Shown here piece after piece: positions 3,098-17,721 of a stretch of DNA of 18,094 bases. The translations under genes and the position numbers were made by a program. The stretch lies in the UHGV virus genome UHGV-0036730; one strand, 5' to 3'. The notes beneath the pieces are model-generated. The model was not told the DNA's origin, made no database searches, and saw nothing but the letters and a program-made list of their open reading frames with translations. This stretch comes from a virus. Numbering within the stretch: position 1 is the first letter of the stretch; each line of letters starts with the position of its first letter.

Positions 3098-3127
3098 GCC
3101 CGCGTCTCCCAGCGCGGGCTTTTTTTG
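3098..3127 (+). terminator. Rho-independent terminator (plus strand)
   Basis: Stem gcccgcg (3098..3104) / cgcgggc (3113..3119), 8-nt loop, then a T-run 3120..3126. Confidence 0.5.
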
Positions 3128-3128
3128 T

Positions 3129-3157
3129 CCATAAGAAAGCCCCTCCGGAGAGGGGCT
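3129..3157 (-). terminator. Candidate rho-independent terminator (minus strand), back to back with the plus-strand terminator
   Basis: Perfect 8-bp stem agcccctc / gaggggct with cgga tetraloop (3138..3157); on the minus strand it is followed by a U-rich tract (uucuuau). Confidence 0.35.
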
Positions 3158-3475
3158 GGAGAGTGGCGCTATGTGCCATTGCATGGTGCCGGGTGCCTCC
3201 CGGTGAGTTCAGTATCAGCACCTGAACCCGCACAGAAAGGATAAGGGTCGGTGACAAAACACCAGTTGCTGATTGCCCCTCCGCACAGGGGGATTCACCA
3301 TGCCAGTTTCTTTTAACAAACTCCCCGCAAACCAGACAACAGTCAACCGCCTGAATTGTGAGGTATTTAAAAATTTCAACGGGTAACTGATACCCTGCTA
3401 ATCGCCTGATGCTTTCTTTTTCAGCAACGGGGAAGCAACAACCACCACACCCACCAGCCGCCCATTTACCACAAA

Positions 3476-3885: not shown

Positions 3886-4278
3886 CTAATCATTTTTTAC
3901 TTTTTTGGGCAGCCAGTCGTCCATCTCCAGCCTTACACCCAGCATCGACAGACATCCGTCAATAAATCCTTCAGCAATCTGCATCTCAATTCGTATTGCC
4001 TTTTCGCTCTTCTTTCTTGTTCTGGCAATCTGCCTTTTTGATATGCGCAGCAGATAATGAGCTACCAGCAGCGAATACTCGTCCGGTTTTTTCTTCTTCA
4101 GGCGCGTAAGGCAGTTTTCGATGATAAGGCCGTCATCATCGCTGCAGGCCGGGCGAGGTTTAGCGGTGGATGGTAAAAGGCCTTTAAATCCAGCAGCTAT
4201 CGGAGAATAGTCCACCCCGGTGTTACCACTTGCCGCCCATGCGCCCCAGCGTTCAAGCACCTGCTGAATATCACGCAT
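3886..4278 (-). CDS. Antitermination protein Q, phage 21 / QuuD-like family
   Basis: Track ORF 3886..4383 trimmed to the ATG at 4278: [37 protein letters not shown]… matches the recalled QuuD/Q21 N-terminus (MRDIQMVLERWGAWAA…). Overlaps the ninH stop by 8 nt; followed by a tR'-like terminator. Confidence 0.7.
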   Translation of the reverse strand: MRDIQQVLERWGAWAASGNTGVDYSPIAAGFKGLLPSTAKPRPACSDDDGLIIENCLTRLKKKKPDEYSLLVAHYLLRISKRQIARTRKKSEKAIRIEMQIAEGFIDGCLSMLGVRLEMDDWLPKKVKND

Positions 4279-4471
4279 CAGAGTCTTTACCCTTATCCCA
4301 TCCACGATGGACCATAAGGACACCGTTGACGACGGCGTGCCGTTTGCCTTCTTTATCGCCAATATATTTTCTGACCGTGGCACGATTACAGTTCAGTATT
4401 CGGGCCACTTCGGTCTGATTTCCATATGCCTCAACAAGCATGTCAGGAATGATTTTTACGGTGAACGTCAT
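4271..4471 (-). CDS. ninH: NinH
   Basis: [58 protein letters not shown]… is near-identical in pattern to recalled lambda NinH ([36 protein letters not shown]…). Confidence 0.8.
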
Positions 4472-8349: not shown

Positions 8350-8570
8350 GGTACTATTTCCACTGTGATAGTTAGCACAATAATAATTTCGCCAGAAACT
8401 ATCGCGCCCTATACAGTGATCTACCTAACCTATGGAGCTGCCTTCCTCTGGTAGTGCCCTTACGGGCACGGATGTTACAGATCTGCCCCCTTACCCCCTT
8501 CTTAGTAAAATTTCAAGCCAAATAATTTCACATGAAATTATTTCACAAAAAATAATCACCTTGATGAGGT
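8350..8570. promoter_or_regulatory. Intergenic region with palindromes and AT-rich iteron-like repeats; candidate replication origin and/or promoter
   Basis: 16-bp palindrome gtgccc-ttac-gggcac (8454..8469); inverted repeat aataatttca-ca-tgaaattatt (8521..8542); reiterated (a)aattt(t)ca motifs 8505..8560; two GATC-containing tacag(t)gatct repeats (8411..8421, 8475..8484). Confidence 0.25.
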
Positions 8571-8852
8571 CTATTCCTTCCGTATCGCTACTGGCGAAAG
8601 CATCCAGCCACGGCTGGCTCTCGCGTACTTCTGGACATACACCCGTAACCGGGTGTTGGCGCTCCGTCTTGCCCTGTTGCCCTTCCTGAACGATACAGGC
8701 TCCTTGTCCCACTCTTCCTGGTACACTCTCGCGTACTCTGCTGCAATTTTTACCCGGGTGGTCGGGTCTAGCTGTAACAATTGCTCCTGTATCCAGTCCC
8801 GATCAGCATCGCTGTACTGATCGGGCATAACCGTTTTGATTTGCCTGTTCAC
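8571..8852 (-). CDS. Hypothetical protein in the cII position (no recognisable similarity to lambda cII)
   Basis: Track ORF (GTG at 8852; alternative ATG at 8828 giving MPDQYSD…). Basic C-terminal half. Immediately downstream of cro. Confidence 0.4.
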   Translation of the reverse strand: MNRQIKTVMPDQYSDADRDWIQEQLLQLDPTTRVKIAAEYARVYQEEWDKEPVSFRKGNRARRSANTRLRVYVQKYARASRGWMLSPVAIRKE

Positions 8853-8882
8853 TCACACCTCCGATGGGCTGTGTGTCCAGGA

Positions 8883-9086
8883 TTAATCATCGCCTCTTAC
8901 GAACGCAGGGAACGGTCGAACCTCTTCCGCCTCAACTCTGCCGTCATCAAAGGTTTTGACGTAAATTTCACGTCCGACAAGAAGCGCTTTACTGATCGCG
9001 CTCTGCGCCACACCAAAGTCCTTAGCGGCTTTCTTCTGACCGAACCTGTATACGTAATCAGCCAGGGTCTCTTTTTTCATCGCCAT
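8883..9086 (-). CDS. cro: Cro repressor (lambda Cro family)
   Basis: Track ORF 8883..9122 trimmed to the ATG at 9086, which has an AAGGAG ribosome-binding site with 7-nt spacer. [60 protein letters not shown] parallels recalled lambda Cro (…[36 protein letters not shown]…AEEVKPFP). Divergent from cI. Confidence 0.8.
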
Positions 9087-9181
9087 AACTGACTCCTTCA
9101 AAATGCCCATATCATTACGCACAGTTATTAAAATGTCAACACCGCAGATATTTCATTACATATAACCAAAGGTGATATGGT
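9087..9181. promoter_or_regulatory. cI-cro divergent promoter/operator region (OR-like)
   Basis: 95-bp intergenic region between divergent cro and cI. Minus-strand TTGACA (plus tgtcaa 9134..9139) is suitably placed as a -35 for a PR-like promoter. Inverted ccatatca / tgatatgg elements (9107..9114 and 9173..9180) are candidate operator half-sites. Operators not defined with certainty. Confidence 0.4.
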
Positions 9182-9895
9182 ATGAACATGAAAAAGAAAC
9201 CGTTAACCCCTGAGCAACTGGAAGACGCCAAGCGTCTGAAAAGTATTTTTAACGCTAAAAAGAAAGAGTTAGGCCTGTCGCAGGAATCATTAGCCTATGA
9301 ATTAGGTGTTACCCAAAGCGCTGTTAATCAGCTAATGGCTGGCATCAACGCCATAAATGCCAGCCACGCAGCACAGCTTGCTAAGATACTGAATGTAAAG
9401 GTCGGAGATTTCAGTCCCAGCCTGGCAAAATCTATTGCAGAAATGGCGCTCGCAATTGAAGAGCCATTAACTCGTGTCCCCGCTTACGAATATCCGTTAC
9501 TCTCCTGCGTACAAGCTGGCGCATTCTCAATGGATGATATTTCGTACACCGCAAAAGATGCGATTAAATGGATCTCCACCACCACAAAAGCCAGTGACAG
9601 GTCGTTCTGGCTGGAGGTCAAGGGGCATTCAATGACCGCACCGCAGGGTGGTAAACCCAGCTTCCCTGAAGGTATGCTGATACTCGTTGACCCTGAACGG
9701 GAAATCGAGGATGGCGATTTTTGCGTGGCCCGAATGAACGGCGATGAATTTACCTTCAAACGATTCATTCGTGAGAGCGGTAAAGCGTACCTGGAGCCGC
9801 TCAACCCACGATTCGACATGATTGAGTGTAACGAAAACTGCCAGTTTGTCGGAAAGGTCATCAAATCGCAGTGGAATGATGATACTTTTGATTGA
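9182..9895 (+). CDS. cI: CI repressor, lambda CI family (HTH DNA-binding domain + S24 LexA-like autocleavage domain)
   Basis: 237 aa; collinear with recalled lambda CI along the whole length (KKKPLT.EQLEDA.RLK…LGLSQES…FSP……EYEYP…VQAG.FS…[33 protein letters not shown]……GDFC.AR..GDEFTFK…). Confidence 0.9.
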
Positions 9896-11522: not shown

Positions 11523-11867
11523 TTAAGCCCCTGTGTGATGGTTGACTTCTTTTTCCAGCGCCTTATTAACAAAGGCGTTCAGTGATAAATCTTCTTCCAT
11601 CGCCATTTCTGCTACCCGACGATGCAGTTCTGGATCAAGCCTGACGTTAAACACACCTTTAAACGGGGTATCAGGCTCCTTTCCATCCTCCACACAAGAC
11701 TGTAAATACAGCTCAACCGATGTCTTAAACTCCTGTTCCAGTTCAGCTAATGTAGAAGCCTCATAAGTTACCAGGTCTCGAATAAACGCCAGTTTTCCGT
11801 ACAGGATATTATTTTCAAAATCTGGTTCTACTGTACCTAAATACCCTTTATATTTTAGATGCTTCAT
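11523..11867 (-). CDS. hicB: HicB-family antitoxin (N-terminal HicB fold + C-terminal ribbon-helix-helix)
   Basis: 114 aa; YKGYLGTVEPDFENNILYGKL…EASTLAELEQEFKTSVELYL… then GVFNVRLDPELHRRVAEMAMEEDLSLNAFVNKALEKEV, the characteristic HicB RHH tail. ATGA overlap with the upstream hicA. Confidence 0.75.
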   Translation of the reverse strand: MKHLKYKGYLGTVEPDFENNILYGKLAFIRDLVTYEASTLAELEQEFKTSVELYLQSCVEDGKEPDTPFKGVFNVRLDPELHRRVAEMAMEEDLSLNAFVNKALEKEVNHHTGA

Positions 11868-12112
11868 AATACCCCAGCCTCTTTCAGATTCTGTTTAATC
11901 GCTTTCAGCGTTCCACCTTTAATATAACTTTCTGGATGTGGGCGATGCATTAATATGGTGTGGTTGATTTCAGCATTGAAAAACCGCACTCTTGAGCCCT
12001 GCATTTCCTTTTTGACATCTCCCAGAGAGGAAAACAAAACGACCAGCTCATCCCATTCAAACGTTTTTTTACTGTTTAAAAACTTTTCCAGTAGCTTATC
12101 TGCTTTCCCCAT
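11864..12112 (-). CDS. hicA: HicA-family toxin (mRNA interferase)
   Basis: Track ORF 11864..12118 (GTG) trimmed to the ATG at 12112. …LLEKFLNSKKTFEWDELVVLFSSLG…HTILMHRPHPESYIKGGTLKAIKQNLKEAGVL follows the HicA/YcfA pattern. Upstream of and overlapping hicB. Confidence 0.7.
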   Translation of the reverse strand: MGKADKLLEKFLNSKKTFEWDELVVLFSSLGDVKKEMQGSRVRFFNAEINHTILMHRPHPESYIKGGTLKAIKQNLKEAGVL

Positions 12113-12268
12113 ACCCACATAATCTCATCTTCGCTACATTGCAACTAATTATAGTTACAGACAGTGTTTTTGTCAAAAGCCACCAAGCCCGCTGGGTTCT
12201 CTTTGACTGTTCGCTGCTTTTCCTGGTGTTATCCGGGGGCTTTTCCCTCACGCCAAATCTCACACAGA

Positions 12269-12294
12269 GTAACCGGCCCGCGCCGGCTTTTCTT
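12269..12294 (+). terminator. Candidate rho-independent terminator in the ORF-poor leader
   Basis: Stem ccggc / gccgg (12273..12286) followed by cttttcttt. Confidence 0.3.
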
Positions 12295-12917
12295 TGACCG
12301 CACTCCGCTAACCGCCCCCTTGAAAAATAAATCACTTTAAAAATCAGTTAAGTAATATTTTTTTGACCCCAATAACCACCAACGGTATTTACACAAAAAT
12401 CACCGCAAGTTATATTTATTTCAAGCCAGAAACATCGCGCCCTTACACAGGGCTACATAAATCAGTCGTACGGCGCGACTTAACCCGCCGCAAAATGCTC
12501 TTTAACAATCTGGAGCTTTACAGCGTCAATGACCTGTTTAGACCCCTACACGTAAACGTGCTGTATCATCGGGTGCGATCCGGTCGATGAGAGAGTATCC
12601 CCGCGCGAGAGCGAGAACGGCGTGAGAACGGGCAACACTGGCAGGAAGTTGGCGCTGACCAATACAGGGAATGTTTTGGGGTGTGGTGAAGGGTTCATGG
12701 ACGGGAATATGTCGCACGTAAAGCGGCGAGGCCCGAGGGACTATTGCTGAAGATAAGTAGGCCGAATCGGGTCGAAATGGGTCTCCCACCTGCCACATCG
12801 CCAAAGCGTTTCTGAGAAAGGACGGTATTGACTGCGTGTGATGTCGGGGCTATATTTGGCGAACACCTCATAAAACGGGTGTCGGGATTGCTACCCCGCT
12901 GACAATCGAGGCGATAC

Positions 12918-12939
12918 AGACGCGCCAGCGTCTTTTTTT
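12918..12939 (+). terminator. Rho-independent terminator upstream of rha (tL-like position)
   Basis: Stem agacgc / gcgtct with gcca loop (12918..12933) followed by a T-run (12933..12939). Confidence 0.45.
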
Positions 12940-13104
12940 GTATCGACATACACGCACATCTTATCAATGGTGGGCTGTATGGGGCCGACTTCGGTCGGGC
13001 TGGTTCCCTTGATTGCCAGTTGTAGCAACCCTGTACAGTCCACCGCCAGCGAGCTTGCTACCTCCAGCGGTGGTTATCAATCACCAATCAAGGAGGCTGC
13101 CATT

Positions 13105-13752
13105 ATGGCTACTATCCCAGTCCTTTCTCAACCTGAAATCACCATTTCCAATGGTCGCGTTATCACAACGTCTATTGCTATTGCTGAATTTTTTGACAAG
13201 CGGCACGACGACGTTTTAAAAAAAATCCGATTGATGGATTGTTCTACGGAATTTAACGCCCGCAATTTTTCGGACGTTACCTACACCGACGCCAAAGGCG
13301 AACAACGCCCAATGTACCAAATCACCAAAAACGGATTCGTTTTCCTGGTGATGGGGTTCACTGGCAAAAAAGCCGCCGCTTTCAAAGAAGCCTACATTGC
13401 TGAATTCGATCGCATGGAAAAACAACTATGGGAACAGAAACAACTGGCCCTGTCTTCTCCTGCGATGAATATCAATTTTCCTTTATCGTGGTTTTCAGAG
13501 CATCACCCCTACGCCACGATGAACTATGTTGATCGCAAGGTTATCAGCCTTGATGCTTCCGTGCTCTTCGATATGCCAAGCCCAACTATGCGCATCCTCA
13601 ACGAGCTACACAGCAAAGGCTATAACGTCGATGCGGCTGTCGCCGAATTTAACGCCTTCAAGCATCTGACGGAAGAAATGCGCCGTCAATTGCTGGACAT
13701 TTCCCGCACATCGGAAAAGTCTTCCCGCTTTGGTTTCAACGTAAATCTTTAA
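13105..13752 (+). CDS. rha: Rha-family phage regulatory protein
   Basis: Track ORF 12967..13752 trimmed to the ATG at 13105, which has an AGGAGG ribosome-binding site at 13091..13096 (8-nt spacer). The N-terminus (…SNGRVITTSIAIAEFFDKRHDDVLKKIR…) fits the Rha domain as I recall it. Confidence 0.65.
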   Translation: MATIPVLSQPEITISNGRVITTSIAIAEFFDKRHDDVLKKIRLMDCSTEFNARNFSDVTYTDAKGEQRPMYQITKNGFVFLVMGFTGKKAAAFKEAYIAEFDRMEKQLWEQKQLALSSPAMNINFPLSWFSEHHPYATMNYVDRKVISLDASVLFDMPSPTMRILNELHSKGYNVDAAVAEFNAFKHLTEEMRRQLLDISRTSEKSSRFGFNVNL

Positions 13753-16274: not shown

Positions 16275-16429
16275 AGCATCCTCACGATAATATCCGGGTA
16301 GGCGCGATCACTTTCGTCTACTCCGTTACAAAGCGAGGCTGGGTATTTCCCGGCCTTTCTGTTATCCGAAATCCGCTGAAAGCACAGCGGCTGGCTGAGG
16401 AGATAAATAATAAACGGGAGAGTGTATGA
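16271..16429 (+). CDS. Small hypothetical ORF (52 aa) between exo and the 250-aa ORF
   Basis: ATG at 16271 overlaps the exo stop (ATGA); its stop overlaps the next ATG (ATGA). [52 protein letters not shown]. Gene status uncertain; below the ORF-track cut-off. Confidence 0.3.
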
Positions 16430-17178
16430 TTCATTTTCACGGTGGTCCAATAACTCCCGATACCTGTGCGTTGAAAGCCTGGAAAGGCAGACACGCATTC
16501 ATCAGTTTTGCTAATCCAGCTCAGATTGATCTGGCTTCCGAAGTCACCCAATCATTTGCTCTTGATAATGGTGCATTCACATTCTGGACAAAAAACAAGG
16601 CCATAGACTGGAATGAATATTACAGATTTGTTGAACGCTGGGGTAATCACCCTCGTTTCTCATTCGCGGTTATCCCGGATGTTATCGGCGGAACCAGTGA
16701 AGAGAATGACGCCCTGATTGCGGCATGGCCTCACGGTAAATTTATTGGTGCTCCGGTGTGGCACATGAACGAACCAGATGAGCGATTTATTCGTCTGTGC
16801 CATGAGTTTCCCCGCGTCTGCATCGGCTCGATGGGGGAATACGATGCAAAACGACCGAGAGCGTGTCGGGCTAAACTACGCGATCTTATACGTCATGTTG
16901 TAGATCAGTACGGCTACCCAATCACCAAGATTCATGGGTTACGGATGTTAAATAAAGACATTTTTACTCATGTACCGCTTTCGTCTGCAGACAGCACGAA
17001 CGTCGCAAGAAATATAGGCATCGACAAATCCTGGGTAGGTTCGCCATATGCTCCCGCAAGTAAAGAAACCCGTACGCAAGTTCTTGTGGAACGCATTGAA
17101 TCATTCAACAGTGCCAGTTCACTTAATTACAACGCTGAACGGGACGTCTTTACCCCTCAACTGGCATTCGAAGTGTGA
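16426..17178 (+). CDS. Conserved phage early protein of unknown function, 250 aa (tentative TGT/DpdA-like motif, see findings)
   Basis: Track ORF; translationally coupled upstream and downstream. Contains ALDNGAFTFW, reminiscent of the transglycosylase DSGGFQ motif, but the assignment is speculative. Confidence 0.5.
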   Translation: MIHFHGGPITPDTCALKAWKGRHAFISFANPAQIDLASEVTQSFALDNGAFTFWTKNKAIDWNEYYRFVERWGNHPRFSFAVIPDVIGGTSEENDALIAAWPHGKFIGAPVWHMNEPDERFIRLCHEFPRVCIGSMGEYDAKRPRACRAKLRDLIRHVVDQYGYPITKIHGLRMLNKDIFTHVPLSSADSTNVARNIGIDKSWVGSPYAPASKETRTQVLVERIESFNSASSLNYNAERDVFTPQLAFEV

Positions 17179-17401: not shown

Positions 17402-17499
17402 ACATGAAAAGCAAAATCATCAGGGAGCTACAGGCTCCTTTTTTATTATTCGCATTCACCCTCAAGCGTATTAACCAACAATTCAGGGATTAATGGAAG

Positions 17500-17721
17500 A
17501 TGGCAGACCTCATTGATTCAGCATCAGAAATTGAAGAATTACAGCGCAACACAGCAATAAAAATGCGCCGCCTGAACCACCAGGCTATATCTGCCACTCA
17601 TTGTTGTGAGTGTGGCGATCCCATAGATGAGCGAAGACGCCTGGCCGTTCAGGGTTGTCGGACTTGTGCAAGTTGCCAGGAGGATCTGGAGCTTATCAGT
17701 AAACAGAGAGGTTCGAAGTGA
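17500..17721 (+). CDS. TraR/DksA-family C4 zinc-finger protein (lambda Orf73-like)
   Basis: 73 aa with C-x2-C-x17-C-x2-C (CCECGDPIDERRRLAVQGCRTCASC), the same size and architecture as TraR. Confidence 0.65.
   Translation: MADLIDSASEIEELQRNTAIKMRRLNHQAISATHCCECGDPIDERRRLAVQGCRTCASCQEDLELISKQRGSK

Follow-up and report, generated by a model that had tools for sequence, protein, structure and literature searches.

What stands in the place of the N gene in a lambdoid prophage that lacks one? The question is raised by the virus genome UHGV-0036730, from which a stretch of 18,094 nucleotides (nt), here called the window, was analyzed. It represents a lambdoid prophage of Eru1/Oslovirus type, in which 986 nt separate the start of hicA (12118, minus strand) from the ATG of the antirepressor gene rha (13105), with no credible open reading frame (ORF) in between. 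By lambda gene order this gap should hold the promoter pL, the antitermination site nutL, and N. The gap is very probably the early-left control region of an N-less Eru1-type (Oslovirus-like) prophage, made up of known elements in a mosaic. Judged from the alignments, its 5' two-thirds appear to be the remains of a phi80-type pL-nutL-N unit, to which a cassette of the P1-immI/Gifsy-1 type is joined at 12813/12814, and N would thus have been replaced at this clean junction rather than eroded.

The gap and the site of N

The initial annotation described about 1 kb of ORF-poor sequence without an N gene, and both statements hold. The longest plus-strand ORF of the gap (75 amino acids, TTG start, 12363-12590) begins 5' of the predicted promoter, and gap ORFs of at least 42 amino acids matched no credible family in Pfam and PHROGs (best E = 8.8e-4, over 24 residues); none of them matched Pfam N_peptide. 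Frameshift-tolerant tblastn, queried with N from phi80, mEp234, and lambda, found no N remnant better than E = 1, and the top-scoring matches fall outside the gap; the N and nutR searches cover 18 kb of prophage. At permissive E values, an Rfam search over the gap returned, besides isrK and C4, just two chance-level matches, to bxd_1 and SAM-Chlorobi.

Alignment with the pL-nutL-N region of phi80 (JX871397) places pL in the same register in both phages and gives 95% identity over 12496-12813, from the boxA of nutL through boxB and the leader to a point 35 nt short of the N ATG. Beyond 12813 the sequences are unrelated, and the window has neither the N coding sequence nor the tL1 terminators of phi80. 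Because homology to phi80 gives out ahead of the N coding sequence and tblastn finds no remnant, the decayed N gene that had been suggested for this stretch does not explain it; the homology stops cleanly and another cassette follows. A frameshifted N gene, or a set of unannotated small Arg-rich proteins, is in our view highly unlikely. Short ATG-initiated peptides with Arg-rich stretches do exist at 12588 and 12698, as had been noticed from the outset, but the leader is also non-coding in phi80, where N comes after it, the 12698 peptide lies within a segment that is deleted in 16 of 22 distinct relatives, no N-like remnant appears in any frame, and the small proteins have no family matches in Pfam or PHROGs.

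One candidate substitute for N was considered and rejected. ORF26 of phage P13374, labeled 'antitermination', is really an ORF6N antirepressor by Pfam and PHROG, and it is absent from the window. In P13374 (L001), an Rfam match to sRNA-Xcc1 (8515-8598, 79.6 bits) lies immediately 5' of ORF26 (8637-9311); the two form a second RNA-plus-antirepressor unit, also missing from the window, and the sRNA-Xcc1/ORF6N pairing is known from APSE phages (PMC7313666).

The IsrK/C4/rha cassette

The immI region of phages P1 and P7, as Citron and Schuster are said to have described it in 1990, has the order a1 b1 - c4 - a2 b2 - icd - ant. In P1, the C4 RNA is processed from a precursor transcript by RNase P. 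The features that follow the junction in the window are these:

12828-12856, plus strand: IsrK promoter, TTGACT-17-TATATT, from a consensus scan; 6 nt before the first base of IsrK
12863-12938, plus strand: IsrK small RNA (sRNA), Rfam RF01394, 61.8 bits (gathering score 50), full length (model 1-77)
12888-12894, plus strand: a1, TTGCTAC, in IsrK
12903-12911, plus strand: b1, CAATCGAGG, in IsrK
12918-12939, plus strand: IsrK intrinsic terminator (12918-12933 plus T7), from a scan; 6-bp GC-rich stem
12963-13050, plus strand: C4-type antisense RNA, Rfam RF01695, 77.4 bits (gathering score 45), full length (model 1-87)
13004-13015, plus strand: b', the 12-nt loop of C4 hairpin 2
13022-13028, plus strand: a', GTAGCAA, at the 3' junction of C4
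13055-13061, plus strand: a2, TTGCTAC, target site on the mRNA
13085-13093, plus strand: b2, CAATCAAGG, target site overlapping the rha Shine-Dalgarno sequence AAGGAGG (13090-13096)
13105-13752, plus strand: rha, AnrP-like antirepressor gene, 215 amino acids; Pfam Phage_pRha 1.4e-30; PHROG transcriptional regulator and anti-repressor

A small RNA had been among the initial suggestions for the gap, and the Rfam matches to IsrK and C4, both above their gathering scores, bear this out, while the cassette that they form with the antirepressor gene had gone unrecognized. Similarly, the terminator scan recovers both plus-strand terminators reported there (12273-12296 and 12918-12939), but the second is not a tL-type terminator awaiting N; it belongs to the IsrK sRNA.

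The minimum free energy fold of C4 (-42.6 kcal/mol) shows the architecture of its family. Nine contiguous Watson-Crick pairs can be drawn between b' (13007-13015) and b2 (13085-13093) and seven between a' and a2, and the a1 and b1 sequences of IsrK can form runs of 7 pairs (a1 with a') and 9 pairs (b1 with b') with C4, one of the nine being G.U. The gene whose Shine-Dalgarno sequence is covered, rha, is the first of the kil-gam-recT-exo operon. Its start is 13105, backed by the Shine-Dalgarno sequence, which corrects the start at 12967 annotated in relatives. The ATG at 12967 and an in-frame ATG at 12979 are internal to C4, at +105 and +117 of the transcript. Public records begin a 'Rha family' coding sequence of 261 or 257 amino acids at or just after the C4-internal ATG, as at 7596-8381 in L001 and 7762-8535 in L002.

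The pairing was examined in ten cassettes, that of the window and nine others at 68-73% identity, from phiP27, P1-like D6, lambda-like 2H10, phi315, P2-like P88, APSE-7, and three Shiga toxin (Stx) phages. isrK is followed by C4 in all nine further cassettes, and in every cassette changes in a' and b' are matched by changes in its own a1/b1 and a2/b2. Mean complementary runs over the 10 loci were 8.9 nt for cognate b'-b1, 10.5 for b'-b2, 6.9 for a'-a1, and 7.0 for a'-a2, compared with 5.7, 6.3, 5.2, and 5.7 nt, in the same order, for non-cognate combinations, and the cognate means were reached in 0 of 10,000 permutations. As far as sequence comparison can tell, the cassette works by base pairing. 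Duplex energies of the whole RNAs (IsrK with C4, and C4 with the downstream sequence) were marginally better than those of shuffles (4/300), and the site-specific covariation test is far more informative. The ORF that starts at the C4-internal ATG varies in frame and in length (15-261 amino acids) among the ten cassettes, which indicates that the RNA is conserved and not a protein. Most of the diverged cassettes have a promoter-like hexamer pair where the window has its IsrK promoter, and by eye, without scoring, this pair is clear in L006, L007, L009, L010, L012, L013, and L014. The cassette region of the window (12828-13125, 298 nt) is 100% identical to those of TL-2011c and P13368.

With P1/P7 immI the window shares the order of the elements, the position of b2 over the ribosome-binding site of the next gene, a C4 with a 17-bp outer stem, a UUCG-type hairpin, and a second hairpin that carries the b' loop, and an antirepressor as the regulated gene. 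Unlike immI, it has no icd-like leader ORF between the b2-covered Shine-Dalgarno sequence, which is rha's own, and the rha ATG; its antirepressor is a Rha-domain protein, and the cassette heads the pL operon of a lambdoid prophage rather than lying in the P1 plasmid prophage. The P1-like phage D6 (L008) scores with both the isrK and the C4 models, and its isrK and C4 pair precedes icd and ant, as in P1 immI. In D6, at 1191-1401, the isrK model reaches 59.1 bits, above threshold, on the a1/b1 region of this P1-type immI locus. RF03163, the c4-a1b1 family, scores 50.1 bits in phi315 (L010), where it overlaps the isrK match, and the 'isrK' and 'c4-a1b1' families of Rfam appear to describe one element. 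In other phages the cassette is located in the nin region, after cro, after Q, or at P1 immI (PMC4825925 and relatives); it is a self-contained, mobile immI-type unit.

The isrK-orf45-anrP locus of Gifsy-1 likewise has an IsrK with its own promoter and an intrinsic terminator (leaky in Gifsy-1), an antirepressor gene downstream, and complementarity between IsrK and the orf45 region, and its in-frame ATGs at +107 and +119-121 compare with +105 and +117 in the window (PMC4825925). In the window, unlike Gifsy-1, the ORF of the C4 region is fused in frame to rha; a fusion of an orf45-type ORF to the antirepressor has likewise been noted in Shigella dysenteriae (PMC4825925). The Gifsy-1 locus lies downstream of the late antiterminator gene antQ, whereas the cassette of the window stands where N should be. 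On this comparison, orf45/STnc1160 would correspond to C4, and IsrK to the a1/b1 element of P1 immI, a link of orf45/STnc1160 to C4 RNA that the Gifsy-1 paper does not make (PMC4825925). In the APSE phages of Hamiltonella, isrK and C4 are also adjacent and 5' of an antirepressor-type gene, with a' and b' annotated, but these are phages of another type and the downstream gene encodes a BRO-N protein (PMC7313666).

pL, nutL, and the leader 5' of the junction

Upstream of the cassette, the following features were located:

12273-12296, plus strand: intrinsic terminator, CCGGCCCGCGCCGG + CTTTTCTTTG (12273-12286 plus T-run), from a terminator scan
12388-12416, plus strand: candidate pL, TTTACA-17-TATATT, from a consensus scan; in register with the annotated pL of phi80 and mEp234
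12456-12497, plus strand: put stem I remnant and linker, put covariance model R1, 17.9 bits, E about 0.005
12496-12508, plus strand: nutL boxA, TGCTCTTTAACAA, aligned with the annotated 'nutL boxA' of phi80; single occurrence in the window
12548-12561, plus strand: nutL boxB-type hairpin, ACACG-TAAA-CGTGC, identical to the annotated 'nutL core' of phi80; single occurrence
12562-12813, plus strand: leader of the missing N gene, from phi80 homology and fold

Thus pL and nutL, which the initial annotation expected here, are both present and aligned to the phi80 annotation, and the search for boxA and boxB that it proposed returns one boxA and one boxB-type hairpin in the window. By position, the terminator at 12273-12296 is the counterpart of Timm, ending cI and moron transcripts: mEp234 has an annotated Timm terminator at the equivalent relative place, 5' of oL, and the block common to 182 phage records begins at 12273, the first base of the terminator (megablast; query 161). 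Among the 22 distinct relatives, the sequence is highly variable 5' of about 12417 and nearly invariant from there to 12685. This sharp boundary points to the edge of the immunity-specific operator region, and about 12340-12416 is a candidate for operator-bearing, immunity-specific DNA. The operators of the window and phi80 differ because their immunity differs. A lambda-like half-site, AATCACCGC, lies at 12398 within pL; a scan for the lambda half-site TATCACCGC returned 77 matches across the window, of which one, at pL (12398), is good and two, at oR, are weak, so the matches are not statistically distinctive.

Between pL and boxA there is a put-like hairpin, AGTCG-TACGGCG-CGACT (12463-12479), followed by a TTAACCC linker. 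The hairpin is 1 nt away from stem I as found in the put RNAs of phiEt88, UPF_BP1, CobraSix, S9-5, and HK639. The covariance model R1, built from 7 put RNAs, has its best match in the window here, exactly between pL and boxA. That N has been replaced by a processive antiterminator RNA of the HK022 put type 3' of pL, as was also suggested initially, would fit this position and the near identity of the hairpin and linker to stem I of the HK022/HK639 put, itself downstream of pL. Yet put RNAs consist of two stem-loops, I and II, in about 70 nt (PMC9378689), and all 50 model positions of stem II are deleted in the R1 alignment; no putR-like second copy is found downstream of pR, the other R1 matches in the window having E values of at least 0.34 and lying in unrelated places, so no two-stem structure is available; and the hairpin begins about 40 nt past the predicted transcription start rather than at +3. 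Because stem II is wholly missing, the element is a fragment and not a put element, and replacement of N by a put RNA is most improbable. The outcome is a 27-nt near-copy of put stem I and linker beside a phi80-type nutL, so that pieces of the two known lambdoid devices for early antitermination are neighbors, and neither system is complete here.

The boxA 13-mer is that of the E. coli rrn leader, from which the phi80 copy (TGCTTTTTAACAA, as against TGCTCTTTAACAA in the window) departs by one mismatch. It opens a 41-mer of which all 5426 E. coli genomes carry seven copies each, 144 nt 5' of the 16S rRNA gene. No further copy of boxA (allowing up to 2 mismatches) or of boxB (up to 3) was found in the window where a nutR could plausibly lie; a lambda-type N/nut system is therefore represented by boxA and boxB 3' of pL and lacks the N gene and nutR. 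Further downstream, the N leader of mEp234/933W-type phages, which encode a different N, shares 91.7% identity with 12675-12806. The long structured leader that had been envisaged for this stretch is real, in that 12667-12813 is predicted to fold into a multibranched hairpin with a basal stem of about 21 bp (-60.5 kcal/mol, z = -3.1), with compensatory changes in five of its pairs among the window, phi80, and mEp234. This hairpin may be an RNase III site, as in the lambda N leader. Most of it (12684-12795, 112 nt) is the segment deleted in 16 of the 22 relatives, among them the closest one, a 99.8% identical prophage; the window represents the rarer intact form. Since the hairpin is so often deleted, the leader is read as a relic, and the most likely status of the nutL site, the N leader, and the put fragment is that of relics or of a recombination linker rather than of a functioning antitermination device.

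An alternative is that the retained nutL is functional, either because its rrn-type boxA recruits NusB/NusE/SuhB without N and shields the untranslated leader of about 680 nt from Rho, or because N supplied in trans by a co-resident phi80-type prophage reads through the IsrK terminator. The 13-nt identity to the rrn boxA would suit such a role, as would the 680 nt of untranslated RNA that a pL transcript crosses before rha, and all 21 distinct relatives that reach that far, including ones whose pL and immunity differ, have boxA, boxB, and the put stem-I fragment without change. However, the entire 260-nt block is invariant, so the conservation is not specific to the boxes, neither nutR nor N is present in the window, and the adjacent leader hairpin is freely deleted in relatives. 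From what is established about rrn antitermination, no boxA-only complex is known that overcomes intrinsic terminators such as that of IsrK. A functional nutL of this kind is thus quite unlikely. It is also unlikely, if still worth keeping in view, that the leader is no fossil because boxA and boxB assemble an N-independent Nus complex against Rho, with pL transcripts that end at the IsrK terminator serving as an SOS-triggered supply of a1/b1 RNA that titrates C4.

Regulation, phage context, and significance

On the reading favored here, an sRNA terminator and a block on translation by antisense RNA stand at the head of the early-left operon, in place of antitermination by N. How pairing leads to regulation has been shown in P1 and Gifsy-1, and we infer it for the phage of the window. 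In Gifsy-1, the isrK promoter was shown experimentally, the IsrK terminator is partly read through to give a translationally silent mRNA, IsrK in trans turns on anrP translation through pairing with the orf45 region, and an RNA of about 80 nt, STnc1160, is processed from the orf45 region (PMC4825925). Expression of an Hfq-binding IsrK of about 76 nt and trans-activation of the antirepressor are shown for Gifsy-1 only (PMC4825925). In the window, the promoter of the cassette would produce a 76-nt IsrK, with most transcripts ending at the IsrK terminator. The RNA that reads through would carry C4, whose a' and b' could pair with a2 and b2 and mask the Shine-Dalgarno sequence of rha, leaving the antirepressor untranslated, and such a long untranslated RNA would probably be prone to Rho-dependent polarity over the downstream recombination genes. 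Because a1 and b1 of IsrK are target-like sequences, IsrK could act as a decoy for C4 and so switch on rha translation. Once cI is inactivated, transcripts from pL would cross the leader into IsrK, and the additional a1/b1 RNA and read-through would favor expression.

Several points weigh against this account. The leader at 12424-12685 is almost invariant in the 22 relatives, which could reflect selection for function rather than recent ancestry, and a perfect rrn-type boxA is not what simple decay would be expected to leave. Searches for cI operators shared between the cro-cI intergenic region and the gap, by exact and mismatch k-mers and by palindromes, were empty, and the promoters and terminators here are consensus matches only. 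The RF03163 c4-a1b1 model finds no match on 12050-13200 even at E up to 10, although the a1 and b1 sequences are present in the window. Finally, Rho-dependent polarity and the contribution of a1/b1 RNA derived from pL are themselves inferences.

The type of the phage is apparent from its other genes, and the features that border the gap on the immunity side are as follows:

8883-9122, minus strand: cro, in the immunity region; adjoins helicase and primase genes standing in for O and P
9182-9895, plus strand: cI, LexA-type, in the immunity region
11523-12118, minus strand: hicA-hicB toxin-antitoxin genes, with HicA and HicB Pfam matches
12148-12176, minus strand: promoter-like site of hicA-hicB, perfect TTGACA-17-TATAAT, from a consensus scan only

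Accessory genes 3' of cI, among them one for a ClpP-like SDH protease, precede hicA-hicB, and the plus-strand genes 3' of the gap are rha (13105-13752), kil, gam, recT, and exo (Pfam/PHROG). This gene order is that of P13374, the Stx2a phage of O104:H4, and the closest relative is an E. coli prophage with 99.8% identity over 7.5 kb. As in the Eru1 group of helicase-primase Stx/lambdoid phages, cro-cI stands beside helicase and primase genes instead of O and P, and N is absent; the absence of lambda N, cII, and cIII homologues from Eru1 phages has been published (PMC8044961). The hicA-hicB genes with their perfect consensus sigma-70 promoter (11523-12176) are inserted between the accessory genes on the cI side and the Timm-like terminator, a slot that is occupied in P13374 by a methylase and a restriction endonuclease.

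Further elements were observed elsewhere in the window. Downstream of the Q antiterminator gene (3886-4383, Pfam Phage_antitermQ 5.5e-52) there is a full-length Rfam match to STnc100 (3127-3332, minus strand, 143 bits), which closes with a strong terminator at 3157-3138; the element has the look of the pR' leader RNA, the transcript on which Q would act, and can be compared with StxS of Stx phages. The left operon contains an ORF at 16426-17178 that matches phrog_887, labeled 'queuine tRNA-ribosyltransferase' (2.1e-99), and, at 17500-17721, a gene for a DksA-like zinc-finger protein, with a good plus-strand terminator between them (17422-17450).

All of the individual parts described here were already catalogued, and the finding is a refinement of annotation rather than a new kind of system, with a mosaic arrangement that is modestly interesting. 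The clean replacement of N, the orphan nutL with its put fragment, and the equivalence of IsrK to a1/b1 and of orf45/STnc1160 to C4 were not found stated in the literature searched. Taken together, they link three literatures, on P1 immI, on Gifsy-1 IsrK, and on Eru1 Stx phages. Among the members of the phage group are the Stx2a phages of the outbreak strains O104:H4 (2011) and O103:H25 (2006), in which the cassette is 100% identical, and the public records of Stx2a phages either leave this kilobase unannotated or stretch the Rha ORF over the C4 RNA. The replacement and the proposed equivalences give a testable picture of early-left and antirepressor control in N-less Stx phages, and possibly of their induction. 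Ultimately, if the leader should prove functional in the way outlined above, the early-left operon of the O104:H4 and O103:H25 Stx2a phages would be gated by an antisense-RNA switch that has functionally taken over from N.

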